From the NCBI RefSeq assembly GCF_041248615.1, contig NZ_CP158426.1: 64,000 nucleotides of DNA, one strand, 5' to 3'. The translations under genes and the position numbers were made by a program. How positions within the stretch are numbered: position 1 is the first letter of the stretch; each line of letters starts with the position of its first letter. Shown piece by piece: positions 1-46,275 of the stretch. Source of the stretch: Escherichia coli (GTDB taxonomy: Bacteria > Pseudomonadota > Gammaproteobacteria > Enterobacterales > Enterobacteriaceae). Under the pieces are notes generated by a model, which saw only the letters and a list, made by a program, of their open reading frames with translations, ran no database searches and was not told the origin of the DNA.

Positions 1-780
1 ACCAGCACCTACATCCCGCACCCGCTGCTCAGCCAGCAGGCTTTTTCACGTTTTGTGCAGGACTATCTGGTATTTGGTAACGCCTACCTGGAGAAACGCA
101 CGAACCGCTTCGGTGAAATTATCGCCCTTGAACCGGCCCTGGCAAAATACACCCGACGCGGGTTAGACCTGGATAACTACTGGTTTGTGCAATACGGCAT
201 GACCACGCAGCCGTATCAGTTCACGAAAGGCAGTATCTTTCATCTGATGGAACCGGACATCAACCAGGAGATCTACGGCCTGCCCGGTTATCTTTCTGCC
301 ATTCCATCCGCCCTGCTCAACGAGTCCGCCACGCTGTTCCGTCGAAAGTATTACATTAACGGCAGTCATGCAGGCTTCATCATGTACATGACCGATGCCG
401 CGCAGAACCAGGAGGATGTGAACAACCTCCGCAATGCGATGAAAAGCGCCAAAGGCCCTGGCAACTTCCGCAACCTGTTTATGTACTCGCCTAACGGCAA
501 AAAGGACGGGCTTCAGATCATCCCGTTGTCAGAAGTCGCGGCGAAGGATGAGTTTCTGAATATCAAGAACGTGAGCCGGGATGACATGATGGCTGCGCAT
601 CGTGTGCCGCCACAAATGATGGGGATAATGCCAAATAATGTCGGGGGATTTGGGGATGTGGAGAAGGCTGCTAATGTGTTTGTTCGAAACGAGTTGCTAC
701 CTTTACAAAAAAGGATAGAGGAGGTCAATGATTGGCTAGGTGAAGATTTAATTACATTCAATTCATATTGCTTTGATTAA
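1..780 (+). CDS. Phage portal protein (P2 Q / 186 W-like), C-terminal part; 5' end lies left of the window
   Basis: Frame 1 is open from base 1 to the stop at 778-780 (track ORF 55-780 starts at an internal GTG). Gene points toward the cos-like sequence at 2045-2063, as the portal gene does in P2-family genomes. Product call is from position and recalled family resemblance. Confidence 0.5.
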   Translation, partial: TSTYIPHPLLSQQAFSRFVQDYLVFGNAYLEKRTNRFGEIIALEPALAKYTRRGLDLDNYWFVQYGMTTQPYQFTKGSIFHLMEPDINQEIYGLPGYLSAIPSALLNESATLFRRKYYINGSHAGFIMYMTDAAQNQEDVNNLRNAMKSAKGPGNFRNLFMYSPNGKKDGLQIIPLSEVAAKDEFLNIKNVSRDDMMAAHRVPPQMMGIMPNNVGGFGDVEKAANVFVRNELLPLQKRIEEVNDWLGEDLITFNSYCFD

Positions 781-790
781 TATTTAAGTT

Positions 791-823
791 AGCCCCAAGA
801 GAAATGAAAATTCTCAATGGGGC
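791..823. terminator. Inverted repeat between the convergent portal and RES genes (AGCCCCA...TGGGGCT with inner GAGAA/TTCTC)
   Basis: Nested palindrome read directly in the 52-bp gap between two convergent stops; weak T-run, so terminator function is tentative. Confidence 0.3.
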
Positions 824-832
824 TATTATCAC

Positions 833-1984
833 TTATTCAACTTCATCGTAATAAATCTCCCATTGATCATTCATACCAACAACCTGCTTTTCCTCGTAAA
901 TATACTGAACCTTGTCAATTTCTATTACTTTTGATGAACCATCTATAAATTCCATACATGAAGGATTAAAAACAACCAAGTTCTTACCTTTACCAACTGT
1001 ACTTGAAAATTGTATACCATCATACCCCTCTTTCCTTATACAATCAGATATTAGTTGGGACACACTATATCTTCCTTCTAAGGAAGGTGGAGTTGCAGTA
1101 TTAAAAATACCTGCCATCTTTGCATATGGTATCATGGATAATAAACTTTCATCACTCTCAATAAACTCTAAAAAATTAGGATAAGAAAAATCGAATACCT
1201 TTAATGCTTTTGCAACTCTAAATTTACCAATTGAAACAACATCTGTTGGATGAGGTCGAACTTCCGCAATTGCAGTATAACTATCTGTAGCACAATAAAG
1301 GTAAGAAACGCCTGCTCTATTAGCCCTGCCAGCAGTAGCCTTTAGTGGTGGCACGGCTCCTATTTCCTTATCTTTAAATGGAACAAATATTTTCTTTCCT
1401 TCACGGCTAAATCCCCTAAGTGCTGTTTTATAGCCAGCAGTCCCAACTCTGGCTCTATATACCACAGAACTTCCTTCTATTATCTTCGAAAAAATATCAC
1501 CATAACCTTTTATAATACTTCTTAGCTCACCTTCAAAATCATGGTAATTCTTTTCTGAAAGCTGTTTTGACAAAGAATCTAAAAATGGCTGATGTGCATT
1601 TCTGATAGACATATATGGCGTATTATATAGACCATCAGATCCATAGCCTGCATAAATATTTATTCCCTCACTATCAAATGCCATATCCCACAATTCGCTA
1701 TCGAGTTCCCCAAAAGATTCATCATGCTCCTGTATATCCTTGGTGAAAATAAAATCATCTTCCAATAGAAAACTCGGGTAATACTCCCCTCCAAAATGAG
1801 TATTGTAATCGACTTCATCATAATGATATCTCAGAATAGCTTTCAACAAATTACGTACTTCTGAAGAATCAGTATCTAAACAAACAGTATCTGCACAACA
1901 AAAAGCACAAATACCTCGTATATTTTGCGAAAAAATTAGTTTTTTTATATTTGATTCAACAATGTGACTTTCGCAGATATACAT
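833..1984 (-). CDS. RES-domain protein with Cys/His-rich N-terminal domain (putative NAD+-targeting toxin / abortive-infection effector); AT-rich cargo gene
   Basis: C-terminal half carries the RES signature: VYRAR, AGRANRAGVSYLYCATDSYTAIAEVRPH (R..N..G...LY.A.......E) and DGIQFSSTVGKGKNLVVFNP (conserved Ser, N.vvF). N-terminus has C-x20-C-x2-CC-x4-C. AGGAG sits 6 nt upstream of the second ATG (1984). Markedly AT-rich versus flanking phage genes. Confidence 0.6.
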   Translation of the reverse strand: MYICESHIVESNIKKLIFSQNIRGICAFCCADTVCLDTDSSEVRNLLKAILRYHYDEVDYNTHFGGEYYPSFLLEDDFIFTKDIQEHDESFGELDSELWDMAFDSEGINIYAGYGSDGLYNTPYMSIRNAHQPFLDSLSKQLSEKNYHDFEGELRSIIKGYGDIFSKIIEGSSVVYRARVGTAGYKTALRGFSREGKKIFVPFKDKEIGAVPPLKATAGRANRAGVSYLYCATDSYTAIAEVRPHPTDVVSIGKFRVAKALKVFDFSYPNFLEFIESDESLLSMIPYAKMAGIFNTATPPSLEGRYSVSQLISDCIRKEGYDGIQFSSTVGKGKNLVVFNPSCMEFIDGSSKVIEIDKVQYIYEEKQVVGMNDQWEIYYDEVE

Positions 1985-2044
1985 CATAATCTCCTTGAAT
2001 TTTACCTTACATGCTCATTATTGCCACTTTAGCTTGCGCGCGCA

Positions 2045-2063
2045 ATCGTATCCCCGCCACGCC
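2045..2063 (-). other. cos-like cohesive-end sequence of P2/186 type (bottom strand GGCGTGGCGGGGATACGAT)
   Basis: Bottom strand matches the recalled 19-nt 186 cohesive end GGCGTGGCGGGGAAAGCAT at 15/19 positions (first 13 contiguous). Lies in a GC-rich non-coding block with a perfect 12-bp palindrome TTGCGCGCGCAA at 2034-2045. Located between the early-region end and the portal gene, where cos is expected. Confidence 0.5.
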
Positions 2064-2349
2064 TGCCCGCTTTATGTAGCGGTTTTCATGCAGGTGCATG
2101 ATCTACGCAAAATCCCACCAGTTCTGGCGGGCCTTAGCAAAAACGATCCGCAAACGATCATGCGATCTCATGCGGCATAGTCATGCACTTACGGGGGAAC
2201 TGAAATCCAGTAACCGAATGATCGCTTGAAAAACGAAACATACGTACTTACAAAGCACAAAGCCTGCTTTGAGCGAAGCGGACATTAATAATGTTGCTGA
2301 CCATCCCTAGTACTTCTCATAATATATCCGTATGTTAATCAACAAAATA

Positions 2350-4242
2350 TTAATTTGTCCCATCACTAAAGAATTTGATTGCGTCAGTTAGTACATAGTC
2401 AATGAAAAATTTTACGTGAAAGACCTGAAAAACGCTATTTTCTGAGTTTTTAATGAAATCTACAGCTATATCTTTTAGGTTGATCAACCAGTTATATTCT
2501 TCAATCAGTCTAGTTCTGGCATCCGCATCAGAATAACGACTCCGTAAGCTAAATGCCAGTTTCCTCATGATAACTGGATCAAGTTTCCTATAGCTTTCAA
2601 TGAAAACATCAGCAGGAACTAAGTGTAAAAAAGGTACATCATGAAGATTTAACTGTCTATTATTAGAATGACTCAATTCAGATAACAACGATAATTTTCC
2701 CCTTTGTAACTCATCTCTGAACTGCAATGCAAATTCCGAAATTGAATCATCAAACCGTTTCTTCCTTTCTATTTTAATATGTTCAATAATGAGCTTAAAG
2801 TCATCACTATCCCTGTCAAGAAAACCTAAACCACGCCATGCCCTTAATTCGTTATAATGTGTTTGCGCATATTCCTTATGTACATCTTCAGCTCTAAGTC
2901 TATTATAATAATTATTTATATTCTGTTTTGTCTCATTTATGAGATCATGAACATCATCTGTTGTTAGACCTTCTTTCGCCATTTCCAGCAAAATACTCGC
3001 TGTCATCAGAAGTTCACCTAAGGAAGTGATCTTACCTGAAAACAGGTTATCCTTAGCAATAGCGTACTGCTCATAAAGCATAGTTTCATTTAGTTCTCTA
3101 TAGTTCCACAAATACTCCCATGCTTGGGAATCGCTGCTTCTAAAAAATCGCGTAATATCCAACTGAGCAAGAAGATCACCCGTTACCTTTCCATCACAGA
3201 TTAGTTCTCTCCAAGACGCACCATCCAGTAACTTCTCGGTTAATACAGGAGACGAATATTTCTCGACAATCATGTCATACTTACTTTTGACACGTTCTTT
3301 ACCCAAAAACATACCATAATTAACATTGCCGATTGAATTGAAATCCTCGTAACTAAGATTCCCTCCCCGGTACTCCATCGAAAAAATTAACAATTGATGA
3401 AAAAACACCCTTATAAATTCATCGTTACTTACATATTTATCTCCCAAAAGGGAAATAATTCGTTGTACATCGAGAAAGAACTGCCTCAAGTGTCTTAGAT
3501 TATTATAATTCGCTGACACATAGAGGTCCTCTATTGTCTGCATATCTTCTTTAAATATATTAGCAACATGCAAACTACTAATTACGTTCAAAAAAATCTT
3601 ACAAGCACTATGTAAATCTGACGTTACTTCAAATGTTTTACCTACTAGCTTTTCTTTTGTTCTCATGTATTCATTGCGAGATTTCTCATCATCATTATTT
3701 ATTCGCTTTTCTCTATTGATTATTTCATCTTCATTGGCAACCAAGATCGCTTTGTATCCGTTTACCTCTACAAAGTGATTTATATATCCAAATAAGATTG
3801 GTAAATCTACACCAGCTCTCTCGACATCATCAAAGACCAGCACAAAACCATCTGGTTTTCTAGTAAAGTCGCTAAGATTAATGGTGGGAACATTGCTATT
3901 GACATCTACGTCAGATTTATTATCGCCATTAAGATCGATCTTGAAAGTAGCCTTAAGCGTATTTTTTAGTACATTTGCACCAAAGATAAGGGCTTTGTTT
4001 GATAGGACAGGATGCAGTTGACGATAGAACTCATCTTCAATCTGCTCAATAGAGTTGACGCCATACAAGCTCACTTTTAGAAATTTGAACTCTGAATGTT
4101 TCTGCCTATATTCTTCAAGAACTCGTTCAATGAACCAAGTTTTACCTGATCCCCAAGCACCTTTAAGCATAATGGCGTATTGAGGTTCAGTTTTAAGGCT
4201 AAGGTAATATTCTAGATAGTCTTTGATGTACGTATTGTGCAT
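2350..4242 (-). CDS. KAP-family P-loop NTPase (candidate anti-phage defence cargo in the tin/old-equivalent hotspot)
   Basis: Walker A GAWGSGKT in the KAP-type GxWGxGK[ST] context and Walker B-like hhhhDDVER (VLVFDDVER); about 630 aa. AT-rich. Start taken at the MHNTY Met (4242); the track ORF extends to 4293 with no RBS. Confidence 0.65.
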   Translation of the reverse strand: MHNTYIKDYLEYYLSLKTEPQYAIMLKGAWGSGKTWFIERVLEEYRQKHSEFKFLKVSLYGVNSIEQIEDEFYRQLHPVLSNKALIFGANVLKNTLKATFKIDLNGDNKSDVDVNSNVPTINLSDFTRKPDGFVLVFDDVERAGVDLPILFGYINHFVEVNGYKAILVANEDEIINREKRINNDDEKSRNEYMRTKEKLVGKTFEVTSDLHSACKIFLNVISSLHVANIFKEDMQTIEDLYVSANYNNLRHLRQFFLDVQRIISLLGDKYVSNDEFIRVFFHQLLIFSMEYRGGNLSYEDFNSIGNVNYGMFLGKERVKSKYDMIVEKYSSPVLTEKLLDGASWRELICDGKVTGDLLAQLDITRFFRSSDSQAWEYLWNYRELNETMLYEQYAIAKDNLFSGKITSLGELLMTASILLEMAKEGLTTDDVHDLINETKQNINNYYNRLRAEDVHKEYAQTHYNELRAWRGLGFLDRDSDDFKLIIEHIKIERKKRFDDSISEFALQFRDELQRGKLSLLSELSHSNNRQLNLHDVPFLHLVPADVFIESYRKLDPVIMRKLAFSLRSRYSDADARTRLIEEYNWLINLKDIAVDFIKNSENSVFQVFHVKFFIDYVLTDAIKFFSDGTN

Positions 4243-4563
4243 TTTTAGTCCATTTTGATAAAATACATAAACATAGATGGTAAGTAGAGCCAAAGGCCAA
4301 CTATGGAAAACTCAATCGGTAGTGTACATTGTAAGGTTATTATTGGTAAATATTATAGGAATACCCATAATCTAACAAAATTCAGATTATCCGTTGCAAA
4401 TTAGTCTGCCATTCGCTAATTGACGAAAGATAGCACAAGAAACGTTCGCTTCTGGCACAAAGCGGACGATCACTTATAAAAATGACCGCCCACCTTACGC
4501 CTTATTTCACTCGTTGCCCAAACTAGCCCCCATTAGAATGAATCCTCCTAGGGGCAACGTTTC

Positions 4564-4797
4564 TTAATGCAGCCAGCTGTCATCTTCCCACACTTTCTGC
4601 ATAATTTTCATTACTTGTTTTCTTTCTTCGTCCAGTTGCAGTCCGGTTAGTTCCACACCGTTAGAGCTACCTTTGCGGATACGAATTACCGTTTTGGAAT
4701 ACAGGGGGCGCAGATTGCGGTAAAGCTCGGATTCAAGGGCGTCCAGGGTAGACTGGCTAATCTTCTGCTCTTTATCGATCATTATTTCAATGCGCAT
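4564..4797 (-). CDS. DinI-family protein (resembles E. coli DinI and the DinI-like domain of phage 186 Tum)
   Basis: MRIEIMIDKEQ...LDALESEL...IRIRKG...LTGLQLDEERKQVMKIMQKVWEDDSW aligns by eye with DinI (MRIEV.IAK...IDAL..EL......V.VR...LSV.G...E...I.EILQETWE.ADDW). GAGGTG RBS 7 nt upstream of ATG at 4797; track ORF 4564-4869 is an upstream extension. Confidence 0.6.
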   Translation of the reverse strand: MRIEIMIDKEQKISQSTLDALESELYRNLRPLYSKTVIRIRKGSSNGVELTGLQLDEERKQVMKIMQKVWEDDSWLH

Positions 4798-4807
4798 AAA
4801 AGTCACC

Positions 4808-4996
4808 TCAGCTGATGACATCCATTGAGCGGTTGTATTCGTGGCTTCTGATTTTTGCCATGAGTTCATCAGTCAATTCAGAAACCCACTGCAGAGCCAG
4901 CCCCTTCTCTTCATCACTACACTCACTAGCCGCTACAAGCTTAAGAAAAAAATCAATGCGCTGGAGCTTCAAAGACTCCAAAAAATAGTCCTGCAT
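4808..4996 (-). CDS. Small phage protein of unknown function, first gene of a two-gene unit with the DinI-like gene
   Basis: 62-codon ORF with AGGAGG RBS 5 nt upstream of ATG; its stop lies 10 nt before the DinI-like start. Confidence 0.45.
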   Translation of the reverse strand: MQDYFLESLKLQRIDFFLKLVAASECSDEEKGLALQWVSELTDELMAKIRSHEYNRSMDVIS

Positions 4997-5039
4997 CTTT
5001 CCTCCTATGACACCACACGCAATTCTGTATGTATAACCA

Positions 5040-5055
5040 CTGTTTATATTTACAG
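5040..5055 (-). promoter_or_regulatory. LexA-box-like motif (bottom strand CTGT-N8-ACAA) upstream of the small-protein/DinI-like pair
   Basis: Top strand TTGTTTATATTTACAG; on the coding strand this is CTGTAAATATAAACAA, one mismatch from the CTGT-N8-ACAG SOS box, about 45 bp upstream of the start codon. Confidence 0.3.
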
Positions 5056-5149
5056 TATATAATAATCCTACTGATGTAAAACGTTTTTTTACGCTTATCA
5101 GCCTGATATGCCTGGTATTATTAAGAGCACGAATTGTTAACCCGCGTAA

Positions 5150-7564
5150 TTAATACAGGTTCCGCCACTGATCATCTTCCTGCAAACGTTGGTTCCGATA
5201 GAAGATACGCAGGCCTGCTCCTGACGGAATACTGCCGCCACGAAGGAGTAAATAGACCTCTTTCTCGCTGCCATCAAATCCTCTGGACTTCAGTTCATAG
5301 ACAAGCTGCTGTCGCTGATGGTCTGTAATTCGCTGTTTGTAGTCTTTACGCCGTTTCGGTTTCACCAGGCGTAACCTTGCAGCCAGTTCCCGGCGCTCTT
5401 TTTTGCTCATACTGTGCAGGTATTCGTGCAACTCCTTGTCATCCATGCGGGTGATATCCGTTCTGGTATCTCCATCAGCTGATTTGTCTTTCCCTTGTTG
5501 GTACAAATTTTCAGCAAGGGGACAGTTATTGCCACGAGTCCAAGGGGCGCAAGCGCCCTGGTCGGCTGCCGCCTCCTGAACGTCAACGGCCTTACGAACC
5601 ATTTTCCACTTCACTGCATGAGTGCAGATCTTGCCCTCTGCAATGGGTGACCAGATGCCATAAATACGAATGCCGTGATCGCCATAGGCGGTCGGCTCTT
5701 CGTTAATTTCATAAGCAGTTCTGATGAGGTGATATTTGCGGGGAACCAGTACGCCGCCCTGCTTCATGATGTAAGTGGCAAAACAACCAGCATCAGCAGC
5801 AGCCAGGATTGCATCAAGGCGCGGGTTATCCAGTACCGGCGCACCTGCTTTTTTGTCCCCCTGTTGCCTTGCCGCCTGACCAGCCAGCAATCGCAGTTCA
5901 CGGTAAGCCTGACGCCCCGGAATGCCAAAGAAGCGGAATTGCTGAACACGATGCAGAGACGCCCAGGCATTAACGTATTCAGCGTTATCACGCAGGGATT
6001 TACCCGTTTCCTTGCTGATCTCGCCAGCCAGACCACGCCCGTCAATGTTCTTACTGATGTATTTCGCGATGTAGCTTGTTGGCGTACCTTTGCGCGGGTT
6101 TATCAGCTCAGACTTAAAGCGTGGTCCCGTGTTATTCCCCAGCTCCTCGCGGTCTTCACGAATGGCAAACTTACGCAATAAAGCAGTAATGGCGCGGCGA
6201 TCTTTTTTGCGCATAAAACACAACAGGTGCCAGTGAACTGTACCGTCATGATGCGGCTCAGCCACCCGCACGCCATACCACCGCAATCCGGCTTTGTGCA
6301 TCGCCTTACGAAATGCAGCAAACATGCCGACCAGATAATCACTGCTTTGTTTTACCGTCGCATTTGTCCAGGTTGGGTTGGGCCTGCCGTTATTTAGCGT
6401 GGAATGGAAACGTGACGGACAGGTGATGGTGTAGAAAACGGCGCAGTCACCGCGCATTTCCGCGATAAGCTCCAGACCTTTAACACAGGCCATCATCTCA
6501 TTGCGGCGATGCGCAGGGTTGCTGCTGCTGGCGTTTACCACATCCTCCATGTCCAGCGTGTCGCCGTCTTCGTTCACCAGTTCATGAGAACGGAAAAACT
6601 CCAGCGACTTACGGCGCTGCTCACGTTTATGCATCACGGCTTCATAGCTGACATAGGGGGATGCTTTTTTGCTAACCAGGCAGACAGCGCGCAACTGCTC
6701 TTCCCGCCATTCGCAACGCATCTTCCATAATTTCCGATACCACCAGTCGGCGCACAACATACGCGCCAGCGAACCCGGAATGAGTTCATAGGGCACGGGT
6801 TTACGGCGGTTTCTTTTCCGGCGGAGTTGCTCAAACGCAGGTGGGATGACATCCAGACGCAGGGTTTCCGCCGCCACCCTTTCCCATGTCTTGCGGATTT
6901 CTTCTGGCTTAACGTCATCGGTGGCATACAAATCGCCACAAGCTGCATCAAGGCACATGCTCATATGCGCAGCAACAAGGGTGGACAGGCGTTTCACCTG
7001 ATCCTGACTCATTTCAGGCAGAATCAGCAGGCCGTCCAGCCCTTCATGGCTTGCCATAAAGCGAAAAGAAGTGGATAGCTGACTGTCGCGTACATGCTCC
7101 AGCCGTTCCAGACATGGCTTAATCGTCTCACGCAAATAGCGGGAATAAGCCTTTGGCCTGCCAAGGCTACTGAAGTATTCAATACGTTGCATCAGCGGCT
7201 TGCTGATATGGGAGGGCTGGGCGCTGACGTCTGCCAGAATGACCATGTCCGGGTTAAAACGCTGCTGCTCATGCGCCAACTTTGCCCGGCTAATGAGCTT
7301 ATCCTGCTCCATTTCGCGCTGGACAGGATCACGGGATTCATTAAAGAAATAACGCTCCCAGACCTGATCACTCAGTGCCTCGCGGCGCAGTTGTTCCTGC
7401 TCGTTATCGGCAGCGTACAGAGTGATCAGGTTTGAAAGCGCAGAAACCGGCGCAACTTCCGCCGGGTCCAGATAAGGGTTAATAGCCTTTTTCGGGCTGT
7501 TCCATGAGAATGCTGCGGCGGCCTCGTTAAAGCCGCTGCAGTTGTTCATATCAGCATGGCTCAT
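5150..7564 (-). CDS. Phage replication initiation endonuclease (P2 gpA / 186 A family, rolling-circle)
   Basis: 804-aa ORF; size, early-operon position and C-terminal region resemble P2-family A proteins. Start overlaps the Dam stop by 4 nt. Confidence 0.8.
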
Positions 7565-8418
7565 GCACGCACTCCGTACACGGCAGAACTATCCACGCCA
7601 CGCGAAGGATCAAATCCCACCCAGCAGCGCGCCCCAGAAACAGCGATGATTTCTGTTGCAGATTTACTCTCACCAGTTGCTACGCCGATGCTGCGTTTTG
7701 CCTTGATGTAGTGGTGAGTAAAATTGCGATACAGCGAACGGATCAGGGATGTGTCACTGTTAGAAACAATGACCGGATGTCCTTCTGATGACCGATGTTC
7801 AAGAACGGATGCCAGGTGATACTGGTCATCTTCAGTGAAGCCGTCAGTGTGATAACCGGAAAACGTGCCGTCATACGGCGGATCGCAATACACCACATCC
7901 CCCGCCTTCAACATCGCCAGCGTTTCATCAAAGCTGGCGCAGATAAACGTTGCCCGCTGGGCTTTTTCTGCAAATGCGCGAATTTCTTTTTCAGGGAAAT
8001 ACGGATTTTTATAATTACCGTAGGGAATGTTGAAATGCCCGCTCTTGTTATAGCGACATAAACCACGGTAACCGTGACGATTGAGATACAGGAAATATAC
8101 CGCTTTCATGAAATCAGTAATTTCAGTTGAGTAATTAAACTCCTGCCTTATGTTGTAATAAGCCACCTCCCTGTTTGCTTCCTCAAATAAAGCTCTGGCG
8201 CGAGATATAAACAATTCACAATCAGCGGCAACCTTTTTATAGAGGTTGATTAAATCAGGATTAATATCCGCAACCAGATAGCTGGGGTAATCCGTCTCCA
8301 TCATCACTGCACAGGAACCCGCGAAAGGTTCAACCAGTCGCGGGCCAGCAGGAAGGTGTTTTTTCAGTTCTGGCATAATGGCGGTTTTATTTCCCGCCCA
8401 TTTCAGGATGGTGCTCAT
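7561..8418 (-). CDS. Dam-family N6-adenine DNA methyltransferase (phage-encoded)
   Basis: N-terminal [11 protein letters not shown]...EPFAGS (SAM-binding) and catalytic DPPY (VYCDPPY); start at the internal Met overlaps the upstream stop (ATGA). Confidence 0.85.
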
Positions 8419-8642
8419 ACAGCACCTCCGTTGTAATGTTTGCCTTTCAGCTCTGCGATTTCCTGACAGGTAATGCAAAGCTGCACTCCAAGAATGGCGC
8501 GGCGTCGTGCTGGCGGAATTGGCGCTTCACATTCAATACAAAGCACGCGGGACACGCCCGGCGTTTTGGCACGGGCAGCACGGATATGACGCTGGCGTTC
8601 TTCTTCAACGCGCTGCTGTACGAGATCCATTGCATCAGCCAT
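8415..8642 (-). CDS. TraR/DksA-family C4 zinc-finger protein (P2 orf82-like)
   Basis: 75 aa with CIECEAPIPP...CITCQ four-Cys motif; typical early-operon position. Confidence 0.7.
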   Translation of the reverse strand: MADAMDLVQQRVEEERQRHIRAARAKTPGVSRVLCIECEAPIPPARRRAILGVQLCITCQEIAELKGKHYNGGAV

Positions 8643-8881
8643 CAGTGGATCTCCTGCGCTTCGTTCTGGATTGCTTCAGCAGTCACACGCAGCAGTTCTG
8701 CCGCTTCGACGTGGTTTAGCTGGCGGGATGTGATATGACACGCAAGACTATCAAGGCGGGCAGCCATTGCTTCAGCCCTTGCCCGGCGTTCTTCCAGACG
8801 AGCCTCTGTCAGTAAAATATTAAGCCCTGCGTCATCCGGTCCGGTTTTGGTCGTGAGGGTTTCAATATTACGCATAATCAA
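8642..8881 (-). CDS. Hypothetical phage early protein
   Basis: 79-codon ORF translationally coupled to the downstream gene; no recognisable motif. Confidence 0.4.
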   Translation of the reverse strand: MIMRNIETLTTKTGPDDAGLNILLTEARLEERRARAEAMAARLDSLACHITSRQLNHVEAAELLRVTAEAIQNEAQEIH

Positions 8882-8942
8882 TTCTCCTGAATTTAGATAA
8901 AGGGATGCCTGGCGGGTTTACGCCATTAATTTCATTAGTTGG

Positions 8943-9284
8943 TTAATTCGGCATGGTTAGCCGTCTGGGAAATAAGCTCACCACTGCACGAAAATGATTC
9001 ATTGCTTTAATCAACTCCCGCTTTTCGTCAGTGGTCAGCTCATTAATGCTGATGCTATGACGTTCAGCTGGAATTTTTGCCATAAAGAATATGGCAGCCA
9101 GTGCCCGTTTATTTTGTTCGCTATTAATATCCCGTGGATCACGCATATCTTTAATAAACCGTTCAAGCTCTGACTCAATATTCAGACCAAAAACTTTCGC
9201 CCTTAACTCCGCAATGTGATTAAGTCCATTCAGGCGTTCACCGGGGCTTAATGGAACAGTCGCCGCAGCGCCTTCAATAGCCAT
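8943..9284 (-). CDS. Hypothetical phage early protein
   Basis: 113-codon ORF in the early operon; start uncertain. Confidence 0.4.
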   Translation of the reverse strand: MAIEGAAATVPLSPGERLNGLNHIAELRAKVFGLNIESELERFIKDMRDPRDINSEQNKRALAAIFFMAKIPAERHSISINELTTDEKRELIKAMNHFRAVVSLFPRRLTMPN

Positions 9285-9448
9285 TTGTTCCCCCGTTTTT
9301 TCGTAGATAGTTCTGCCAGCAATTCATCTTGTGAACGGCACGGATGCCAGCGTTTACCATCCTCACCCATGATCCAGCCGTGACCGTAGTGCATTGCCGG
9401 GCTTTGTTTAACAAGCAGCGATGCAAATGATGGTTCTTTCGTAAGCAT
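9248..9448 (-). CDS. Hypothetical small phage early protein
   Basis: 66-codon ORF starting 8 nt after the CII stop with GAGGTG upstream; overlaps the next ORF, so the call is tentative. Confidence 0.3.
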   Translation of the reverse strand: MLTKEPSFASLLVKQSPAMHYGHGWIMGEDGKRWHPCRSQDELLAELSTKKRGNKWLLKALRRLFH

Positions 9449-9455
9449 AAGCACC

Positions 9456-9965
9456 TCACAGCAAACCGAATGAAGCACCGAGGCCAGTCACGGTATCAAC
9501 TGCACTCGCCATCGCAGGGTTAGCCTGTAAACGGGCCTGCAATGAAACAGCAGCCAGCGCCATCAGTCGTGTTACAGAGTTAATGCTGCTGATAGCATCA
9601 CGACGACCTGCACTGGTTTTTACATCGCCAGATACCGCACCTGCAGCAACACGCCCGATCTCTGCGGTTGCACTCATGACGTAATGCGGCAGTTTCTCTT
9701 TTGCTACCTCATTAATCGGAACACATGGCAGGCAGTGAATCTGTGCCAGAAAACCATCTACCAGCGTTGAATCTTCAGTCAGATCGGTAAGCAACCAAAT
9801 TTCTGGTGCGGTTAATAAATGAGGTTGAGCTGGGTTCAGTTTGTTCCGCAGAATCTGCACATTCATACCTGCACGTTCTGCCAGTTGCACCAGATTGTGG
9901 CGCAGTGCGAATGCACGACAGGCTTCATCAAAATGTGGATGTTTGGAAACTTGGTAATCAAACAT
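9456..9965 (-). CDS. CII-like lysogeny-establishment transcriptional activator (phage 186 CII family)
   Basis: N-terminus [24 protein letters not shown]...[25 protein letters not shown] closely matches the recalled 186 CII sequence; first gene-pair position of the lytic operon. Confidence 0.8.
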
Positions 9966-9997
9966 GGTCAATGCCTCTGATGTATTTCAGAATCGAA

Positions 9998-10219
9998 CTA
10001 ATTAAGGTTTAGATTGCATTCTGAAAGCGCATCAACGGTCATGGCTGCTATGTTGATCATCACTTTTTCGCGTTTTTTATCTTTGCGCAAACGGTGACGG
10101 ATAAGGCGTCCATCAGCCAACATGTCATTGATGGTATCGATGGACAGCCCTGTCAGCTCGCTATAGCGTTCAATAGTCACATGAGGCGTGGTAAGAGTGA
10201 TTGAAATGTTAGGTCTCAT
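9998..10219 (-). CDS. Apl/Cox-like excisionase and lytic-operon repressor
   Basis: 73-aa basic protein, first gene of the lytic operon and divergent from CI, as apl/cox in 186/P2. Confidence 0.55.
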
Positions 10220-10344
10220 GATGCAACATTCCTCGTTTAATGATGATTAATCAGGACGAATACGGATCGTTTGTATTTTGTGAACACCATAAACATACGA
10301 TCGCACAATGAAATCGTCAAGACAAAAGTTCACTTGGAGTGACC
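10220..10344. promoter_or_regulatory. Immunity switch region between apl and cI (expected pR/pL promoters and CI operators)
   Basis: 125-bp divergent intergenic region containing repeated ACGATCG-type elements; assignment by analogy to 186. Confidence 0.45.
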
Positions 10345-10914
10345 ATGAATTTGGAGAAAGGCGGACGAGGCGCTATAGAGCGCATGGTAGAAGCTTATGG
10401 ATTCAAGACTCGACAGGCGTTGTGCGATCATTTAGGAATCTCTAAAAGTACACTCGCCACACGCTACATGCGTGACTCATTCCCCGCAGAATGGGTAATC
10501 CAGTGCGCCCTTGAAACGGGCACCTCGCTTAATTGGCTCACAACCGGGCATGGTTCAAAGCAAACTTCAGGTAATACAAATACTATGGAAGTTGCTAAAT
10601 ATGTATTATCTGATGGGGCCTTGTGTGAAGACGGTTTTTATATTTTCGATAGGGGATTTCTACCGTCGGCATTCAAGAGTCTTTTTGTAATCACAGATAA
10701 TAATTCTGAATGTATTTGTGATAAGGAATTTGATGATATACGTGATGGTAAATGGGTAATAAGTATTGATGGTGAAATAACGATCCGTGACATTACTCGT
10801 TTACCCGGCGGAAGAATCTTCGTCGAGGGTGGAAACAGAGCGTTCGAATGCAAGATAGAAGACATTGAAATAATTGGTAAAATTATAAGTTTAACAGTCA
10901 AGTATGTTAAATAG
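10345..10914 (+). CDS. CI immunity repressor (phage 186 CI family)
   Basis: ERMVEAYGF...CALETGTSLNWLTTGHG...GKWVISIDGEITIRDITRLPGGRIFVEGGNRAFECKIEDIEIIGKII parallels the recalled 186 CI sequence; GGAG RBS before ATG at 10345 (track ORF starts at GTG 10339). Confidence 0.85.
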   Translation: MNLEKGGRGAIERMVEAYGFKTRQALCDHLGISKSTLATRYMRDSFPAEWVIQCALETGTSLNWLTTGHGSKQTSGNTNTMEVAKYVLSDGALCEDGFYIFDRGFLPSAFKSLFVITDNNSECICDKEFDDIRDGKWVISIDGEITIRDITRLPGGRIFVEGGNRAFECKIEDIEIIGKIISLTVKYVK

Positions 10915-10929
10915 TACCGGGAGGAAACT

Positions 10930-11121
10930 ATGCTTGGTAAGGTATTTTTTGTGGTTTTGTCATGTTCTTTGTTATTAAACCCACTAACTACCTATGCTAG
11001 AAATTATCCCTGTTCAGGGAAAAAGGGAGGTGTTTCTCACTGTACCTCAGATGGCAAATTCGTTTGCAATGATGGAACTATTAGTAAATCCAAAAAAATC
11101 TGTACTAAAAACTCACGATAA
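10930..11121 (+). CDS. Small secreted Cys-containing peptide (possible moron) between cI and int
   Basis: 63 codons; strong RBS GGGAGG 6 nt before ATG; N-terminal signal-peptide-like segment ([23 protein letters not shown]) followed by about 40 residues with four Cys and many Lys. Confidence 0.5.
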
Positions 11122-11309
11122 CTTTTGCTTTTATATCTGCGCCTAAAATAAAAATGAGCCGCAGGTTAACCGCAAAAGTTACATGCTCACATAGCAAAAA
11201 GAATAGCCAACTTAATTATGGCTTCAGTGAGATGTATGGTCGTAGGATTTCATACATTGACACTGGTTATACATACAGTGAAAATGCTCTCTACTGGAGG
11301 GCATTTTTT

Positions 11310-12362
11310 ATGGCAGTACGAAAACTCACCACAGGGAAATGGCTTTGCGAATGTTACCCCGCCGGACGTAATGGGCGTCGTGTGCGTAAACAATTCGCCA
11401 CCAAAGGCGAAGCACTGGCCTTCGAGCGATACACCATGGGGGAAATAGAAGCAAAGCCCTGGCTGGGCGAATCAGTGGATCGTCGGACACTGAAAGATAT
11501 GGTTGAGCTATGGTTCAAATTACATGGCAAATCTCTTACTGCCGGACAGCATGTCTACAACAAGCTGCTGTTGATGGTTGACGCCTTGGGAAATCCCCTT
11601 GCAACTGATCTCACCTCAAAAATGTTTGCTCACTATCGCGATAAACGCCTTACTGGTGAAATCTACTTCAGTGAAAAATGGAAGAAAGGAGCAAGCCCAG
11701 TTACTGTTAACCTGGAGCAAAGCCATCTAAGCAGCGTTTTCAGAGAACTTTCCCGCCTGGGTGAATGGACACTTCCAAACCCATTAGAGAAGATGCGCAA
11801 ATTCACTATCGCAGAAAAGGAAATGGCATGGCTTACACATGAGCAGATTATCGAATTACTGTCTGACTGCAAACGTCAGAACCCAATTCTGGCACTGGTG
11901 GTAAAAATATGTCTAAGTACAGGTGCACGTTGGCGAGAAGCAATCAATCTTGCTCGCTCACAGGTCACCAAGTACCGAATCACCTTTGTGAGAACGAAGG
12001 GTAAGAAAAACAGAAGCATCCCTATCAGTAAAGAGCTTTATGAAGAGATAATGGCGCTCGATGGGTTCAATTTCTTCACAGACTGCTATTTTCAATTTTT
12101 ATCCGTGATGGAAAAAACGTCTATCGTTCTCCCTCGCGGTCAACTGACACACGTTCTGCGCCATACGTTTGCGGCGCACTTCATGATGTCGGGTGGAAAC
12201 ATCTTGGCCTTACAAAAAATTCTCGGACATCACGATATAAAAATGACTATGCGTTATGCGCATCTGGCACCGGATCATTTGGAAACGGCGCTCCGTTTCA
12301 ATCCACTGGCAACGTTACCAAATGGCGACAAAGTGGCGGCAGCGGTTGGCATTACCCCGTAA
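11310..12362 (+). CDS. int: Phage tyrosine integrase
   Basis: Catalytic residues in TGARWREA, HVLRHTFAAH and MRYAHL; GGAGG RBS before ATG at 11310 (track ORF starts upstream at 11154); last prophage gene, about 100 bp from host rcdA. Confidence 0.9.
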   Translation: MAVRKLTTGKWLCECYPAGRNGRRVRKQFATKGEALAFERYTMGEIEAKPWLGESVDRRTLKDMVELWFKLHGKSLTAGQHVYNKLLLMVDALGNPLATDLTSKMFAHYRDKRLTGEIYFSEKWKKGASPVTVNLEQSHLSSVFRELSRLGEWTLPNPLEKMRKFTIAEKEMAWLTHEQIIELLSDCKRQNPILALVVKICLSTGARWREAINLARSQVTKYRITFVRTKGKKNRSIPISKELYEEIMALDGFNFFTDCYFQFLSVMEKTSIVLPRGQLTHVLRHTFAAHFMMSGGNILALQKILGHHDIKMTMRYAHLAPDHLETALRFNPLATLPNGDKVAAAVGITP

Positions 12363-12421
12363 TAACCACCACTGACCACCACATTAAGTTATTGTTTTTC
12401 ATCTAACTTATTGTTTTTATT

Positions 12422-12447
12422 AACCCATTTAGATAAGTGGGTTTTTT
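12422..12447 (+). terminator. Rho-independent terminator after int / att-junction hairpin (AACCCA-N10-TGGGTT + TTTTTT)
   Basis: Stem-loop followed by a six-T run; its 3' part TGGGTTTTTTGTT equals the recalled 3' end of the E. coli RybB sRNA terminator. Confidence 0.5.
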
Positions 12448-12466
12448 GTTATCTAAAATTTATCTA

Positions 12467-13003
12467 CTACCCTGCAACCCTCTCAACCATCCTCAAAATC
12501 TCCTCGCGCGATAGCGGCTTACGGTCGGTGACAAAATGCAGCGTCATCCCCTCAATAAACGCATCAAGCGCGCGGGCGGTTCCGGGTTCAAACCATTGTT
12601 CGAGCGTTTGCTGACTGCGCTGCATCCAGTTTTGCATTACCGTTTTTAATAGCGGTTTTCGGCTAGCCAGCGCGTAGAGCTGATACATCAGCTCCATATT
12701 ATCCGGCGTTGCAACCTGTGAGCTGTAGATCATATCGGTGATAGCCTGGCATGCGCCTTGAGCATCACTAACATCGCTAAAAAATGCCTGATATTGCCGG
12801 GACATGATCTCAGTAAAACTGCTGAACGCCTCCAGCAACAACTCATCAATTCCTGAAAAATAGTAGGTCATCGATCCCAACGGTACCCCGGCAAGGGTAG
12901 CAATTTTGCGGTGCGTAACAGCATGTATTCCATAAAGTTTCACCGCCTCCAGCGTGGCCTGGATAATTTTTTCTCGCCGTTGCGGATCGTTAGCGCGACG
13001 CAT
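12467..13003 (-). CDS. rcdA: TetR-family transcriptional regulator RcdA (YbjK)
   Basis: Trimmed to internal Met gives 178 aa, matching K-12; N-terminal TetR HTH; synteny. Confidence 0.9.
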
Positions 13004-13086
13004 GTCATTTCCTCTCTCTGCAATTGTGTACAAATGTACACAACCTTGCTAATGTTGTCTTCCCTCTTCTTATTTTGACGTGATCT

Positions 13087-14295
13087 ATGACCGTAAATTC
13101 TTCACGTAATGCATTGAAACGCCGAACCTGGGCGCTGTTTATGTTCTTCTTTTTGCCGGGCCTGTTAATGGCGTCCTGGGCAACCCGTACGCCTGCTATC
13201 CGCGATATTCTTTCTGTTTCGATCGCTGAAATGGGCGGAGTCCTCTTTGGTCTGTCGATCGGTTCAATGAGCGGTATTCTCTGCTCGGCGTGGTTAGTGA
13301 AACGCTTTGGCACGCGTAATGTCATCCTGGTCACGATGTCCTGCGCATTGATCGGGATGATGATACTAAGTCTGGCACTCTGGCTGACATCGCCCCTGCT
13401 CTTTGCCGTTGGTCTCGGCGTCTTTGGGGCAAGTTTTGGTTCTGCGGAAGTGGCGATAAACGTTGAAGGTGCCGCCGTTGAGCGAGAAATGAATAAAACG
13501 GTTTTGCCGATGATGCACGGTTTTTATAGCCTGGGCACGCTGGCAGGCGCAGGTGTCGGGATGGCACTTACGGCCTTTGGCGTTCCAGCAACGGTGCACA
13601 TTTTATTGGCGGCGCTGGTAGGCATCGCGCCTATTTATATCGCCATTCAGGCAATCCCTGACGGTACGGGCAAAAATGCTGCCGATGGCACCCAGCATGG
13701 TGAAAAAGGCGTACCTTTTTATCGGGATATCCAGTTGCTGCTGATTGGTGTTGTGGTGCTGGCGATGGCCTTTGCCGAAGGTTCTGCCAACGACTGGTTA
13801 CCCTTATTAATGGTTGACGGTCACGGTTTTAGCCCCACTTCCGGCTCGCTGATTTATGCCGGTTTTACCCTGGGGATGACCGTTGGACGCTTCACTGGCG
13901 GTTGGTTCATCGACCGTTACAGTCGCGTTGCCGTGGTTCGGGCCAGTGCGCTAATGGGGGCGTTGGGTATTGGGCTGATTATTTTTGTCGATAGCGCCTG
14001 GGTCGCTGGGGTGTCTGTTGTACTCTGGGGACTGGGTGCCTCGCTGGGCTTCCCGCTGACCATTTCTGCCGCCAGCGATACCGGCCCCGATGCACCAACC
14101 CGCGTCAGTGTGGTAGCAACGACCGGTTATCTGGCTTTCCTCGTCGGGCCGCCGCTGCTGGGCTATCTCGGCGAACATTATGGATTACGTAGTGCAATGC
14201 TGGTTGTACTGGCGCTGGTTATTCTCGCGGCTATTGTCGCGAAAGCCGTCGCCAAACCCGATACCAAAACGCAGACGGCGATGGAGAATAGTTGA
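13087..14295 (+). CDS. ybjJ: MFS inner-membrane transporter YbjJ
   Basis: 402 aa, polytopic hydrophobic; synteny. Confidence 0.85.
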
Positions 14296-23941: not shown

Positions 23942-24328
23942 ATGGGTGTGTATAAGGCAAGACGATTCAGCCAAAGCACGAAAAAACTTGGTATTCACGA
24001 TAAAGTTCTCATGGCTGCCGCTGAAGAAGTGATGCAGGGCATATGGGAGGCTGATTTAGGTAGCGGTGTCATCAAAAAACGTTTACCCCTCCAACAAGGA
24101 AAGAGTGGTGGAGCCAGAACAATTATCTTTTTTAAATCAGCAAATCATGTGTTTTTTTATGATGGTTGGTCCAAGAGTGGTCTAAGCAGTAAAGGAACCA
24201 AAGAAATCGAAGATGATGAACTGGCGGCCTACAAAAAAATGGCAAATGCATTTCTGGCCTTTAGCAATAAGCAAATAGAGGATTTGATCGAAACTGGCTT
24301 TTTGATTGAGGTGAAAAATGAGCGATAA
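23942..24328 (+). CDS. HigB2-like (Gp49/RelE-superfamily) toxin of a type II toxin-antitoxin pair
   Basis: GSGVIKKRLPLQQGKSGGARTIIFF resembles the recalled HigB-2 core (GTGGLRKIR...GKRGGSRIIYYF); toxin-first order with an 11-nt overlap into an HTH gene; absent from this position in K-12 as recalled. Confidence 0.55.
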   Translation: MGVYKARRFSQSTKKLGIHDKVLMAAAEEVMQGIWEADLGSGVIKKRLPLQQGKSGGARTIIFFKSANHVFFYDGWSKSGLSSKGTKEIEDDELAAYKKMANAFLAFSNKQIEDLIETGFLIEVKNER

Positions 24329-24647
24329 ATTACAAATGATGCTGGAAGATGCAAAGGAACTGAATGCACTGGGCCTGATGTCTGATAGTGAAGTTGATGC
24401 CATTGCCGTCATGGTCAAAGCTCGTGAAGTCAGCGCCCGTATAGCCAAAGTCAAATCAATGACGGGTGAAGAGATCAAAGCCATCCGCACCCGATACGGC
24501 ATGTCACAATCCGTGCTGGCACATACAATGGGAATGTCAAAAGAAAGTGTCTCGAAATGGGAACGTAATGAAATAAAACCGAGCGGCCCGGCATTACGTA
24601 TTTTGAATACATTGGCAATAAAAGGGCCGGAAGTTTTTGCAAAGTAA
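24318..24647 (+). CDS. HigA-like XRE-family HTH antitoxin
   Basis: C-terminal helix-turn-helix (GMSQSVLAHTMGMSKESVSKWE); overlaps the toxin gene. Confidence 0.6.
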   Translation: MSDKLQMMLEDAKELNALGLMSDSEVDAIAVMVKAREVSARIAKVKSMTGEEIKAIRTRYGMSQSVLAHTMGMSKESVSKWERNEIKPSGPALRILNTLAIKGPEVFAK

Positions 24648-42329: not shown

Positions 42330-43595
42330 ATGGCTTCTACTTTTACCAGCGACACATTGCCTGCCGATCACAAAGCAGCTATCCGTCAGATGAAGCACGC
42401 GCTGCGGGCACAGCTTGGCGACGTCCAGCAGATCTTTAATCAGCTAAGCGATGACATTGCTACGCGAGTGGCTGAAATCAACGCACTCAAAGCACAGGGC
42501 GATGCCGTCTGGCCGGTGCTGTCTTATGCCGATATCAAAGCAGGTCATGTTACTGCAGAGCAGCGCGAACAGATTAAACGTCGCGGTTGTGCGGTGATAA
42601 AAGGCCATTTCCCCCGCGAACAAGCGCTAGGCTGGGATCAGTCGATGCTGGACTATCTGGACCGCAACCGCTTTGACGAGGTCTACAAAGGCCCCGGCGA
42701 TAATTTCTTCGGGACGCTCAGCGCTTCACGTCCCGAGATTTACCCCATCTACTGGTCGCAGGCGCAAATGCAGGCCCGCCAGAGTGAAGAAATGGCGAAT
42801 GTGCAGTCGTTTCTCAATCGTCTGTGGACATTTGAAAGTGATGGAAAGCAATGGTTTAACCCGGATGTGAGCGTCATCTACCCTGACCGTATCCGCCGCC
42901 GTCCGCCCGGAACGACCTCCAAAGGTCTTGGAGCGCATACCGACTCCGGGGCGCTGGAACGCTGGCTGCTTCCAGCGTATCAGCACGTTTTCGCCAACGT
43001 CTTTAATGGCAATCTGGCGAAATACGATCCCTGGCATGCGGCACATCGTACGGAAGTTGAAGAGTACACGGTGGACAACACCACCAAATGTTCCGTGTTT
43101 CGGACATTCCAGGGCTGGACAGCGCTCTCTGATATGCTGCCTGGTCAGGGGCTGCTGCACGTCGTGCCCATTCCTGAAGCCATGGCGTACGTACTGTTAC
43201 GTCCGCTGCTTGATGATGTGCCGGAGGATGAACTGTGCGGCGTAGCGCCCGGAAGAGTATTGCCGGTATCAGAGCAATGGCATCCACTGTTAATTGAGGC
43301 GTTAACCAGCATTCCAAAACTCGAAGCCGGAGACTCCGTCTGGTGGCACTGCGACGTCATCCATTCCGTTGCCCCCGTTGAAAATCAACAGGGCTGGGGC
43401 AACGTGATGTACATTCCTGCGGCACCGATGTGCGAGAAAAATCTTGCCTACGCGCACAAGGTGAAGGCCGCACTGGAAAAAGGCGCATCGCCGGGCGACT
43501 TCCCGCGCGAGGACTATGAAACAAACTGGGAAGGACGCTTTACGCTTGCCGACCTCAACATTCACGGTAAGCGAGCGTTGGGAATCGACAGCTGA
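42330..43595 (+). CDS. ybiU: DUF1479-family protein YbiU
   Basis: 421 aa from MASTFTSD; synteny. Confidence 0.8.
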   Translation: MASTFTSDTLPADHKAAIRQMKHALRAQLGDVQQIFNQLSDDIATRVAEINALKAQGDAVWPVLSYADIKAGHVTAEQREQIKRRGCAVIKGHFPREQALGWDQSMLDYLDRNRFDEVYKGPGDNFFGTLSASRPEIYPIYWSQAQMQARQSEEMANVQSFLNRLWTFESDGKQWFNPDVSVIYPDRIRRRPPGTTSKGLGAHTDSGALERWLLPAYQHVFANVFNGNLAKYDPWHAAHRTEVEEYTVDNTTKCSVFRTFQGWTALSDMLPGQGLLHVVPIPEAMAYVLLRPLLDDVPEDELCGVAPGRVLPVSEQWHPLLIEALTSIPKLEAGDSVWWHCDVIHSVAPVENQQGWGNVMYIPAAPMCEKNLAYAHKVKAALEKGASPGDFPREDYETNWEGRFTLADLNIHGKRALGIDS

Positions 43596-44665
43596 GTGTC
43601 GTACAGCCCTTCCCGTTCCACGGCGGTGTTCCCTTTTCCTGGGCGAACCCGCCGCACTGACTCCCGCATCGCCAATCGTCCGTGCAGCAGCAGCGAGCCC
43701 ACCGGAGCATCCGGGCGAATCAGCCGCTGTTGCAACATTTGCACCGCTTCATTGCCTAGCTCATCGCGTGGCACATGCACAGCCGTCAGGGGAACATCCT
43801 CGATTGCCGCAAGGTTAAAGCCGTCGATACTCATCACCGAGACATCCTGTGGTACGCGCAGACCACGACGATGTAGCGCATTTACCGTTCCCGCCGCCAT
43901 AAAATCCCCGCCGACCAGAAACGCCGTCGGCAACGTCTTGCCATTGGCGGCATCCAGCCACGCTCCGACCTTTTCTTCCGCTTCTTTAGCGCTAAAACTG
44001 CTGATATTCAGCAAATGACGGTCATGGTGAAAGGCCAGATTATGCTGACGCCATGATTCTTTAATCCCTGCAAACCGCTGCTCCATAGTGTAGCGGCGCA
44101 GGCACATCACATTCATCACCTCCCGGTGACCCATTTCAAACAGATAGCGGGCGGCGAACGCGCCAATTAACCGATGGTCCGGCGCAATCGCCGGGAGGCG
44201 CATTCGTTCATCACGGCAGTTGATCAGCACACAAGGCTTAGCGAGATCGGCGGCCAGATCATGGATGTGCGGATCGTCAATCCCCAGCAGGATCGCCGCC
44301 TGCGTATCTGCTTCATTCATCCGCGAGAGAAATAGCGCGGGATCGCTGTCAAACTCCTCCAGCGCGCAGTAACGCAGCCGCACTTCATGCGGCGATAACG
44401 CTTTGCTGATGCTCTGGATCACACGGTAATAAAAGATATCAGATCGTTGGTCAAAAGCGCGTTGCGGCGCGAAAATAATCAGGTTGTTCAGCAACATACG
44501 ACCTGCTGCCATGCCATCCATCACGCCCAACTCACGCGCGCAGGCCAGCACCTGTTCGCGAGCGCGTGCACTGGTATTCGCTTTGCCAGCCAGCACCCGC
44601 GAAACCGTACTCGGCGATAGCCCGGTACGTGCGGCGATATCGGCGATTTTCAGCTTCTTGTCCAT
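43562..44665 (-). CDS. LacI-family transcriptional regulator (accessory island)
   Basis: N-terminal HTH (KIADIAARTGLSPSTVSRVLAG) and periplasmic-binding-like effector domain; start at MDKKLKIADIA; 3' end overlaps ybiU by 34 bp. Confidence 0.75.
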   Translation of the reverse strand: MDKKLKIADIAARTGLSPSTVSRVLAGKANTSARAREQVLACARELGVMDGMAAGRMLLNNLIIFAPQRAFDQRSDIFYYRVIQSISKALSPHEVRLRYCALEEFDSDPALFLSRMNEADTQAAILLGIDDPHIHDLAADLAKPCVLINCRDERMRLPAIAPDHRLIGAFAARYLFEMGHREVMNVMCLRRYTMEQRFAGIKESWRQHNLAFHHDRHLLNISSFSAKEAEEKVGAWLDAANGKTLPTAFLVGGDFMAAGTVNALHRRGLRVPQDVSVMSIDGFNLAAIEDVPLTAVHVPRDELGNEAVQMLQQRLIRPDAPVGSLLLHGRLAMRESVRRVRPGKGNTAVEREGLYDTQLSIPNARLP

Positions 44666-44959
44666 TTTGTGATCTGCCTCTAATTCGGAAATGACAGAAT
44701 TTTCATGAGCAAAAAAGCCCATTCTGTCTGGCATTAAATCCATTTCAGTAATGTATATCAGTCACTCATGGAAAAACGTGCACAAAACCCGCTTTCTTTC
44801 GCTTTTAGGGTCTCTTACTGTGAATTGGTAGAACAACTTCCATACAAAAATAATGGGAAAACGAACAATAAAGACTTTATTTATCAAAAAGTTAAAAGTG
44901 GTGTGACAACTCCATTCTGACGTTGCCGCACAAACCCTATACCATTCTGTGGAGTGCAT

Positions 44960-46261: not shown

Positions 46262-46275
46262 GAGTGGATGTAAAC

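Follow-up and report, generated by a model that had tools for sequence, protein, structure and literature searches.

The interval between a phage integrase gene and rcdA in this Escherichia coli chromosome is almost certainly the integrase-proximal junction (P-O-B′) of a 34,336-bp P2/186-like prophage that integrated site-specifically into the 3′ end of rybB. RybB is an Hfq-dependent sRNA under sigma-E control. All positions given below without an accession or locus number are those of the window, i.e., the whole 64-kb stretch of DNA analyzed. The stop codon of the integrase gene (int) is at 12360-12362 and the minus-strand rcdA open reading frame (ORF) ends at 12467; the spacer between the two genes is therefore 12363-12466. 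An earlier note on this DNA, made from the sequence alone, had put the end of int about 100 bp from rcdA; the spacer measures 104 bp.

The distal junction and the annotation were read in NZ_LT599825.1, the chromosome of E. coli NRZ14408, which is 100% identical to the window across 12000-13100, the stretch searched. A window position equals the NZ_LT599825.1 position minus 3,491,668. For the population comparison, window positions 12000-13100 were compared by megablast with 5426 complete E. coli genomes. The K-12-type reference locus is that of NEB Turbo (L001); the distal-junction locus, L003, is from NZ_LT599825.1.

The two prophage junctions and the rebuilt rybB gene

The features of the integrase-proximal junction (attR) are as follows.

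12363-12466: spacer between int and rcdA, 104 bp
12422-12450, plus strand: hairpin resembling an intrinsic terminator, AACCCAUUU-AGAU-AAGUGGGUU followed by a U-tract; the stem-loop is at 12422-12443
12438-12450, plus strand: integrase-proximal copy of the att core, TGGGTTTTTTGTT, corresponding to RybB model positions 67-79, the last 13 nt of rybB
12451-12466, plus strand: bacterial B′ flank, ATCTAAAATTTATCTA, from the core to the rcdA stop codon; aligning attR and attL with empty sites shows that it partly matches GCCTGAAATTTATGCC of the phage P′ arm
12467-13003, minus strand: rcdA (ybjK), the chromosomal gene nearest to the prophage on its right side (as annotated in RefSeq for the identical record)

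In the K-12-type locus, Rfam found RybB (RF00110, 105.3 bits, full length, 1-79) between ybjL and rcdA, on the strand converging on rcdA and with its 3′ end facing that gene, which is the arrangement that the earlier note had given. This copy of RybB ends in ...GGUUGAUGGGUUUUUUGUU, 16 nt before the rcdA stop codon, and the 13-mer in the junction is therefore the exact 3′ end of RybB, as the note had proposed. The 13-mer occurs once in the window; 0.20 chance matches would be expected at one mismatch or fewer. In the megablast comparison with the 5426 genomes, the homology of prophage-free genomes begins at query position 439, which is window position 12438; a few genomes start at 438 (12437). 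The DNA to the left of the core is phage DNA and unrelated to rybB. That the upstream sequence has nothing in common with rybB had also been claimed, and both the break in homology at 12438 and the Rfam search for RybB, which gave no match in 12250-12550 even at an E value of ≤10, bear this out. At the gathering score, Rfam gave no match anywhere in the window. The junction itself is thus not a RybB gene, for it holds only the 13-nt tail, and the real gene is at the distal junction.

The distal junction (attL) lies between ybjL and the phage ogr gene in NZ_LT599825.1, outside the window. Because the element is 34,336 bp long from core to core, this junction falls about 21.9 kb before the first base of the window. 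An intact, full-length rybB is located there (L003 7705-7783; RF00110, 104.1 bits) and ends in TGGGTTTTTTGTT. The order is rybB, the core, and then the P′ arm beginning with GCCTGAAATTTATGCC, with ogr 78 bp downstream. The earlier note had predicted an intact rybB and a direct repeat of the core at the far end of the prophage, and both were found. The promoter-side flank of the distal rybB is identical to the K-12-type sequence, and RybB expression would be unaffected by the integration.

In this strain the core together with the preceding G, at 12437 in the window, makes 14 bp that are identical at the two junctions. Where K-12 has A immediately left of the core, this strain has G at both junctions. 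In the RybB terminator, the G allele gives a U-G pair in place of U-A, but the predicted energy changes only from −25.0 to −24.4 kcal/mol, which is negligible. We considered whether the phage had donated an A-to-G change to the stem of the RybB terminator, but rejected this because the G allele is also found in an empty site (strain SJC33) and in at least 574 genomes. E. coli has both A and G alleles at this base, and, judging from these sequences, the G beside the core is a host polymorphism.

The junction hairpin has a 9-bp stem and a 4-nt loop (−9.4 kcal/mol, z −2.0) and is followed by TTTTGTT. Its 5′ arm and loop are phage P-arm DNA, and its 3′ arm and U-tract are the core. The RybB terminator, with a 12-bp stem and a 17-nt loop, is much larger, and the two structures have in common only the 3′ arm (UGGGUU) and the U-tract. 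The suggestion that the hairpin mimics the RybB terminator therefore holds for the 3′ arm and the T-tract, but not for the phage-derived 5′ arm and loop or for the size. Two further phage variants, KP12 (CCCGTTT/AAATGGG) and ESBL15 (CCCATTT/AAATGGG), have the hairpin too, with changes that still allow pairing. Its preservation in three phage variants fits a role in terminating int, and the hairpin is most likely the terminator of the integrase gene. A few sub-threshold Rfam matches at the junction (OmrA-B, 18 bits, E value of 0.35; CRISPR-DR; RNAI) were taken as chance matches due to a generic resemblance among terminators.

The prophage and its present state

The window contains the right-hand part of the prophage, the main features of which are listed here.

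1-12437, no strand: right-hand part of the prophage, 12.4 kb of 34.3 kb, assigned to Peduoviridae (P2/186-like) from annotation, PHROGs, and nucleotide similarity
9456-9971, minus strand: CII
9998-10219, minus strand: Cox/Apl-like excisionase and repressor (phrog_575, 4.8e-30)
10339-10914, plus strand: CI-type repressor (annotated as phage repressor protein CI; phrog_4), in the same direction as int
11310-12362, plus strand: tyrosine integrase, 350 amino acids (aa) according to RefSeq (the mechanical ORF starts at 11154), ending 75 bp before the core

From left to right, the genes in the window are a portal gene truncated by the window edge, a cargo region, a replication endonuclease gene, a Dam methylase gene, TraR-like and Fil genes, the genes for CII, the Cox/Apl-like protein, and CI, an ORF of the YdcA family, and int. 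The integrase has Int_N (PF24624, 1.5e-30) and Phage_integrase (PF00589, in two pieces, 1.2e-10 and 5.9e-08) domains in Pfam and matches phrog_1 (6e-75). It is 94 to 95% identical in amino acid sequence to the integrases of vB_EcoM-813R9, KP12, and 4LV2017 (94.3% for the last) and about 55% identical to the Int of PSP3. The motifs ARWRE, HVLRH, LGHHD, and RYAHL were read by eye in the translation, without a reference alignment. The Cox/Apl-like protein is probably the recombination directionality factor.

The P2-type gene set is present: a P2-family capsid, the GPO scaffold, terminase, portal, gpD, ogr, a gpA-like replication endonuclease, CI, CII, and a Cox-like protein. Its gene content and similarity place the prophage in Peduoviridae. 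The 12.4 kb in the window are about 94% identical to vB_EcoM-813R9, KP12, and 4LV2017 over about 61%, and the remainder is the variable cargo region.

The cargo region is flanked by the portal gene and the replication genes. One of its minus-strand genes (2350-4293) encodes a P-loop NTPase of 646 aa with a match to PDC-S49, a candidate defense family in PADLOC (E value of 3.6e-156). Another minus-strand gene (833-1987) encodes a 383-aa RES-domain "NAD+ phosphorylase", for which there was no match in PADLOC or PHROGs; the regulatory genes likewise had no match in PADLOC. In 4LV2017 the annotated genes under the match to this stretch of the prophage include a retron (reverse transcriptase plus an effector of the St85 family), possibly at the same position. 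Between cI and int, on the plus strand (10930-11121), is a 63-aa ORF with a hydrophobic N terminus and several cysteines. RefSeq places it in the YdcA family and it matches phrog_6000, in which its function is unassigned; it may be a lysogenic-conversion gene.

RefSeq annotates pseudogenes, an integrase fragment and a truncated tail protein, beside a DNA invertase in the tail-fiber region (L003 17163-18668; NZ_LT599825.1 3479162-3480667, outside the window), and consequently the prophage may be defective or rearranged there. These pseudogenes would fit the idea that the junction is the fossil of a defective prophage that no longer excises, the hairpin and core merely terminating int and the transcription that converges with rcdA. 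We think this somewhat unlikely, although it is the strongest of the alternatives, because the integrase, the Cox-like protein, CI, CII, the arm repeats, and both att sites, whose 14-bp cores are identical, show no damage. Moreover, this idea concerns only the present activity of the prophage and does not conflict with site-specific integration as the way in which the structure arose.

The attachment site and the alleles of the host flank

The phage attachment site, attP, was reconstructed by joining the window up to 12450 to L003 from 7784. In Klebsiella phage KP12 (OM835953) the reconstructed sequence is found in one piece between int and ogr, with 100% coverage and 94.3% identity. Klebsiella phage 4LV2017 (KY271398), which was deposited as an excised prophage, has an annotated att of 19 bp, ATGGGTTTTTTGTTGCCTG, that is located at the end of a rybB copy and extends past rybB. 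The sites compare as follows, written as left arm, core, and right arm.

attR (window): GATAAG-TGGGTTTTTTGTT-ATCTAAAATTTATCTAC
attL (distal junction): GGTTGG-TGGGTTTTTTGTT-GCCTGAAATTTATGCC
attB, K-12 type: GGTTGA-TGGGTTTTTTGTT-ATCTAAAACTTATCTAC
Empty site of O157:H7 (L009 4001-4060, strain PV15-279): GGTTGA-TGGGTTTTTTGTT-GCCTGAAATTTAT-CTACTACC
attP, predicted: ...GATAAG-TGGGTTTTTTGTT-GCCTGAAATTT...; with a longer left arm, ...TTAGATAAG-TGGGTTTTTTGTT-GCCTGAAATTTATGCC...

Two sets of repeats flank the core in the predicted attP.

12322-12344, plus strand: candidate arm-type integrase binding site, ATGGCGACAAAGTGGCGGCAGCG, within the 3′ end of int; a direct repeat of it, with 22 of 23 bases identical, lies in the P′ arm, 67 bp past the start of the distal core
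12386-12418, plus strand: a pair of direct repeats in the P arm, AAGTTATTGTTTTT and AACTTATTGTTTTT, located after int and before the core

The 23-nt motif, ATGGCGACAAA(G/A)TGGCGGCAGCG, is found as direct repeats at −116 and +67 relative to the core, and 10-mers are repeated at −116/+67 and −104/+79. The motif is conserved in KP12 and ESBL15 and, by analogy with P2 and lambda, is a candidate arm-type site for Int. The two TTATTGTTTTT repeats, at −49 and −30 in the P arm, are conserved in KP12; by the same analogy, they are possible sites for an accessory protein or for Int (IHF or Int arm sites). In having these elements the reconstructed attP looks like a typical heterobivalent site of a tyrosine integrase.

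The breakpoints, the duplicated core, the intact distal rybB, the empty sites, the genes for the integrase and excisionase, and an uninterrupted attP in phage records were all seen directly. The mechanism that we propose is the following. The phage attP holds a copy of the last 13 nt of rybB, i.e., the 3′ arm of the terminator and the U-tract, and the next 13 nt of attP match the downstream flank of rybB in many strains of E. coli and Klebsiella. The tyrosine recombinase would cross over within the block of 13 to 14 bp. As a result rybB stays intact at the far junction, where its tail is followed by phage DNA and ogr, and a second copy of the tail ends up beside rcdA. The phage 5′ arm pairs with the tail to give a small hairpin, which most likely serves as the int terminator in the free phage as well as in the prophage.

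Directly after the core, this lysogen has GCCTG at attL and ATCTA at attR; thus, the exchange was to the left of these bases, inside (G)TGGGTTTTTTGTT. The best-supported reading is that the strands would be exchanged within TGGGTTTTTTGTT, the tail of rybB. In hosts with a 26-bp match to attP, the crossover could in principle be downstream of rybB. A 26-bp match is found between attP and empty sites of the O157 type: 13 bp are in rybB and 13 bp are beyond it, and the latter, GCCTGAAATTTAT, are identical to the phage P′ arm. The claim that the attP core is the 3′ end of rybB is upheld by the breakpoint, the duplicated core, and the attP of KP12, but in many E. coli strains the match extends beyond the rybB tail.

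Of the 5426 complete genomes, 5418 have rybB. In 1109 (20.4%) the gene runs into the ogr-side phage arm, and the integrase type of the window abuts rcdA in 1061 (megablast). A count of 2181 genomes with rybB followed by GCCTGAAATTT was rejected as a count of lysogens because O157:H7 has this sequence in an empty site; longer queries were used instead. After rybB the flank has a K-12-type allele, ATCTAAAAC, an O157-type allele, GCCTGAAAT, which equals the phage arm, and mosaics such as those of SJC33 (L004 1490-1560) and of the window strain (12437-12466). The empty sites were distributed among these alleles as follows.

K-12-type flank (13-bp match only): at least 2333 genomes
O157-type flank: at least 1369 genomes
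Mosaic form as in SJC33 (G...GCCTAAAATTTAT): presumed from 284 one-mismatch hits of the G-allele query

In at least 553 genomes, a K-12-type B′ flank is joined on its left to sequence other than rybB, most likely a phage P arm. If these genomes are lysogens, the identity between their attL and attR is limited to the 13 to 14 bp inside rybB, which would place the crossover there.

These data bear on the possibility that the 13 bp downstream of rybB (GCCTGAAATTTAT) make up most of the functional att site, with the overlap with the rybB tail being incidental and the exchange normally occurring outside the sRNA gene. Half of the 26-bp match to O157-type empty sites is beyond the 3′ end of RybB, such empty sites are common, and the att of 4LV2017 runs past rybB. 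Nevertheless, we consider this possibility very unlikely, given the bases that directly follow the core at attL and attR in this lysogen and, if they are lysogens, the genomes with a K-12-type flank. The weakest alternative is that the 13-nt match is a chance likeness between two generic Rho-independent terminators, the prophage lying beside rybB or replacing it without using it as an att site. The motif is indeed short and of low complexity (GGG plus a T-run), and OmrA-B-type sub-threshold Rfam matches fall at the same spot, but this idea is refuted by the breakpoint, which coincides exactly with the 13-mer when the window is compared with more than 4000 empty-site genomes, by the intact rybB that the same 13-mer closes at the other end of the prophage, and by the contiguous attP in phage records. 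In addition, some 1100 genomes show the same arrangement. Integration into the 3′ end of rybB, with the exchange probably inside its tail, is thus the reading that we adopt.

Phage traffic at rybB might itself shape the sRNA locus. The alleles of the flank and terminator would then be footprints of integration and excision, or else host escape variants that cut the match to attP from 26 to 13 bp. We regard this as improbable, but if it were true, allele changes could alter the efficiency of lysogenization, or the termination and Hfq binding of RybB.

A second type of integrase (WP_000290920.1) is found at the same rybB-rcdA site in E. coli ESBL 15 (L006 1601-1660). The hairpin is kept there, and the T-run has 4 T's instead of 6. 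Because the run is two bases shorter, the two att copies of that prophage may no longer be identical. Both junction searches put some of their hits on plasmids, and two small records carry junctions of this kind: a rybB-ogr junction is at NZ_CP148584.1 65695-65875 (73.8 kb, Z1322HEC0001), and a core-rcdA junction is at NZ_CP148400.1 24956-24998 (55.2 kb, Z1323HEC0009). These records look like unplaced pieces of chromosome rather than plasmids.

Relation to known attachment sites, and the neighboring chromosome

The earlier note presented an sRNA gene, rather than a tRNA gene, as the attachment site. The gene is indeed rybB, but the novelty that this implied is lost, since insertions of P2-like prophages in rybB have been published. 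The site was described in 2011, 2014, and 2023; its use is widespread, and the mechanism is a conventional one. Archer 2011 (Table 2, PMC3032704) lists "rybB ncRNA" as the insertion site of three P2-like prophages: Rybb*W of E. coli W, Rybb*B of strain B (REL606), and Rybb*Cr of Crooks. They share with the prophage described here the species, the rybB site, and the P2-like type with variable cargo; this likeness is by published description, for the site and the phage type. At the corresponding position, Rybb*B carries the retron Ec86 whereas the prophage studied here, in a different strain, carries the PDC-S49 candidate and the RES-domain gene. The Kpn38RybB island of Klebsiella pneumoniae Kpn2146 is another earlier description of the site (Hudson 2014, PMC4048246). 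The att of 4LV2017 contains the same core and its integrase is closely similar, but its host is Klebsiella and its att is 19 bp, compared to the 13 to 14 bp of identity between attL and attR here.

As hotspot #29, rybB has been reported to be a dedicated integration hotspot that only one P2-related group (Felsduovirus) occupies, in 109 of more than 1300 E. coli genomes, each time with defense cargo (Hochhauser, Millman, and Sorek 2023, PMC10121019, citing Bobay 2013, PMC3603311). Among the 5426 complete genomes compared here, the site is occupied in 1109. The phage records most similar to our prophage are vB_EcoM-813R9, KP12, and 4LV2017 (Elveevirus, Peduoviridae according to the record), not Fels-2 itself. 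The hotspot paper (PMC10121019) gives no base-level anatomy of the att site. What is new here is only documentation: the extended 26-bp match, the alleles of the host flank, the arm repeats, and the conservation of the hairpin.

Integration at the 3′ ends of tRNA and tmRNA genes is known (Williams 2002, as cited in PMC10121019). Among sRNA genes, P2-type prophages are found at cyaR/ryeE (Archer 2011, Table 2, PMC3032704; Bobay 2013, PMC3603311), and ryeA/ryeB is an integration locus in Salmonella (Balbontin 2008, as cited in PMC3603311). sRNA genes as phage targets have been discussed, with ryeB and ryeE as the earlier examples (Bobay 2013, PMC3603311). The logic at all of these sites is the same as at rybB: attP copies the 3′ end of a conserved gene for a structured small RNA, and because it carries this copy, the gene is rebuilt upon integration. 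The rybB case differs in that the target is an Hfq-dependent, sigma-E-controlled sRNA and only the 13-nt terminator tail is duplicated. It provides a textbook-style case, at base resolution, of a phage that uses the terminator tail of a regulatory sRNA as its att site while the gene is kept intact. For annotation, it is of value that few prophage sites in E. coli are filled as often as the rybB-rcdA interval (about 20% of complete genomes) and that the occupants of this interval bring variable antiphage cargo.

To the right of the prophage, the RefSeq annotation gives rcdA, ybjJ, and ybjI, and then ordinary core chromosome. On the plus strand at 23942-24647, between rimO and dgcI, RefSeq annotates a RelE/ParE-family toxin with a helix-turn-helix antitoxin in the identical record. 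Between ybiU and ybiT (43562-48639) are genes for a LacI-family regulator, a major facilitator superfamily (MFS) transporter, and a glycoside hydrolase of family 31, all without K-12 gene names in the annotation; this cluster may be an accessory sugar-utilization island.
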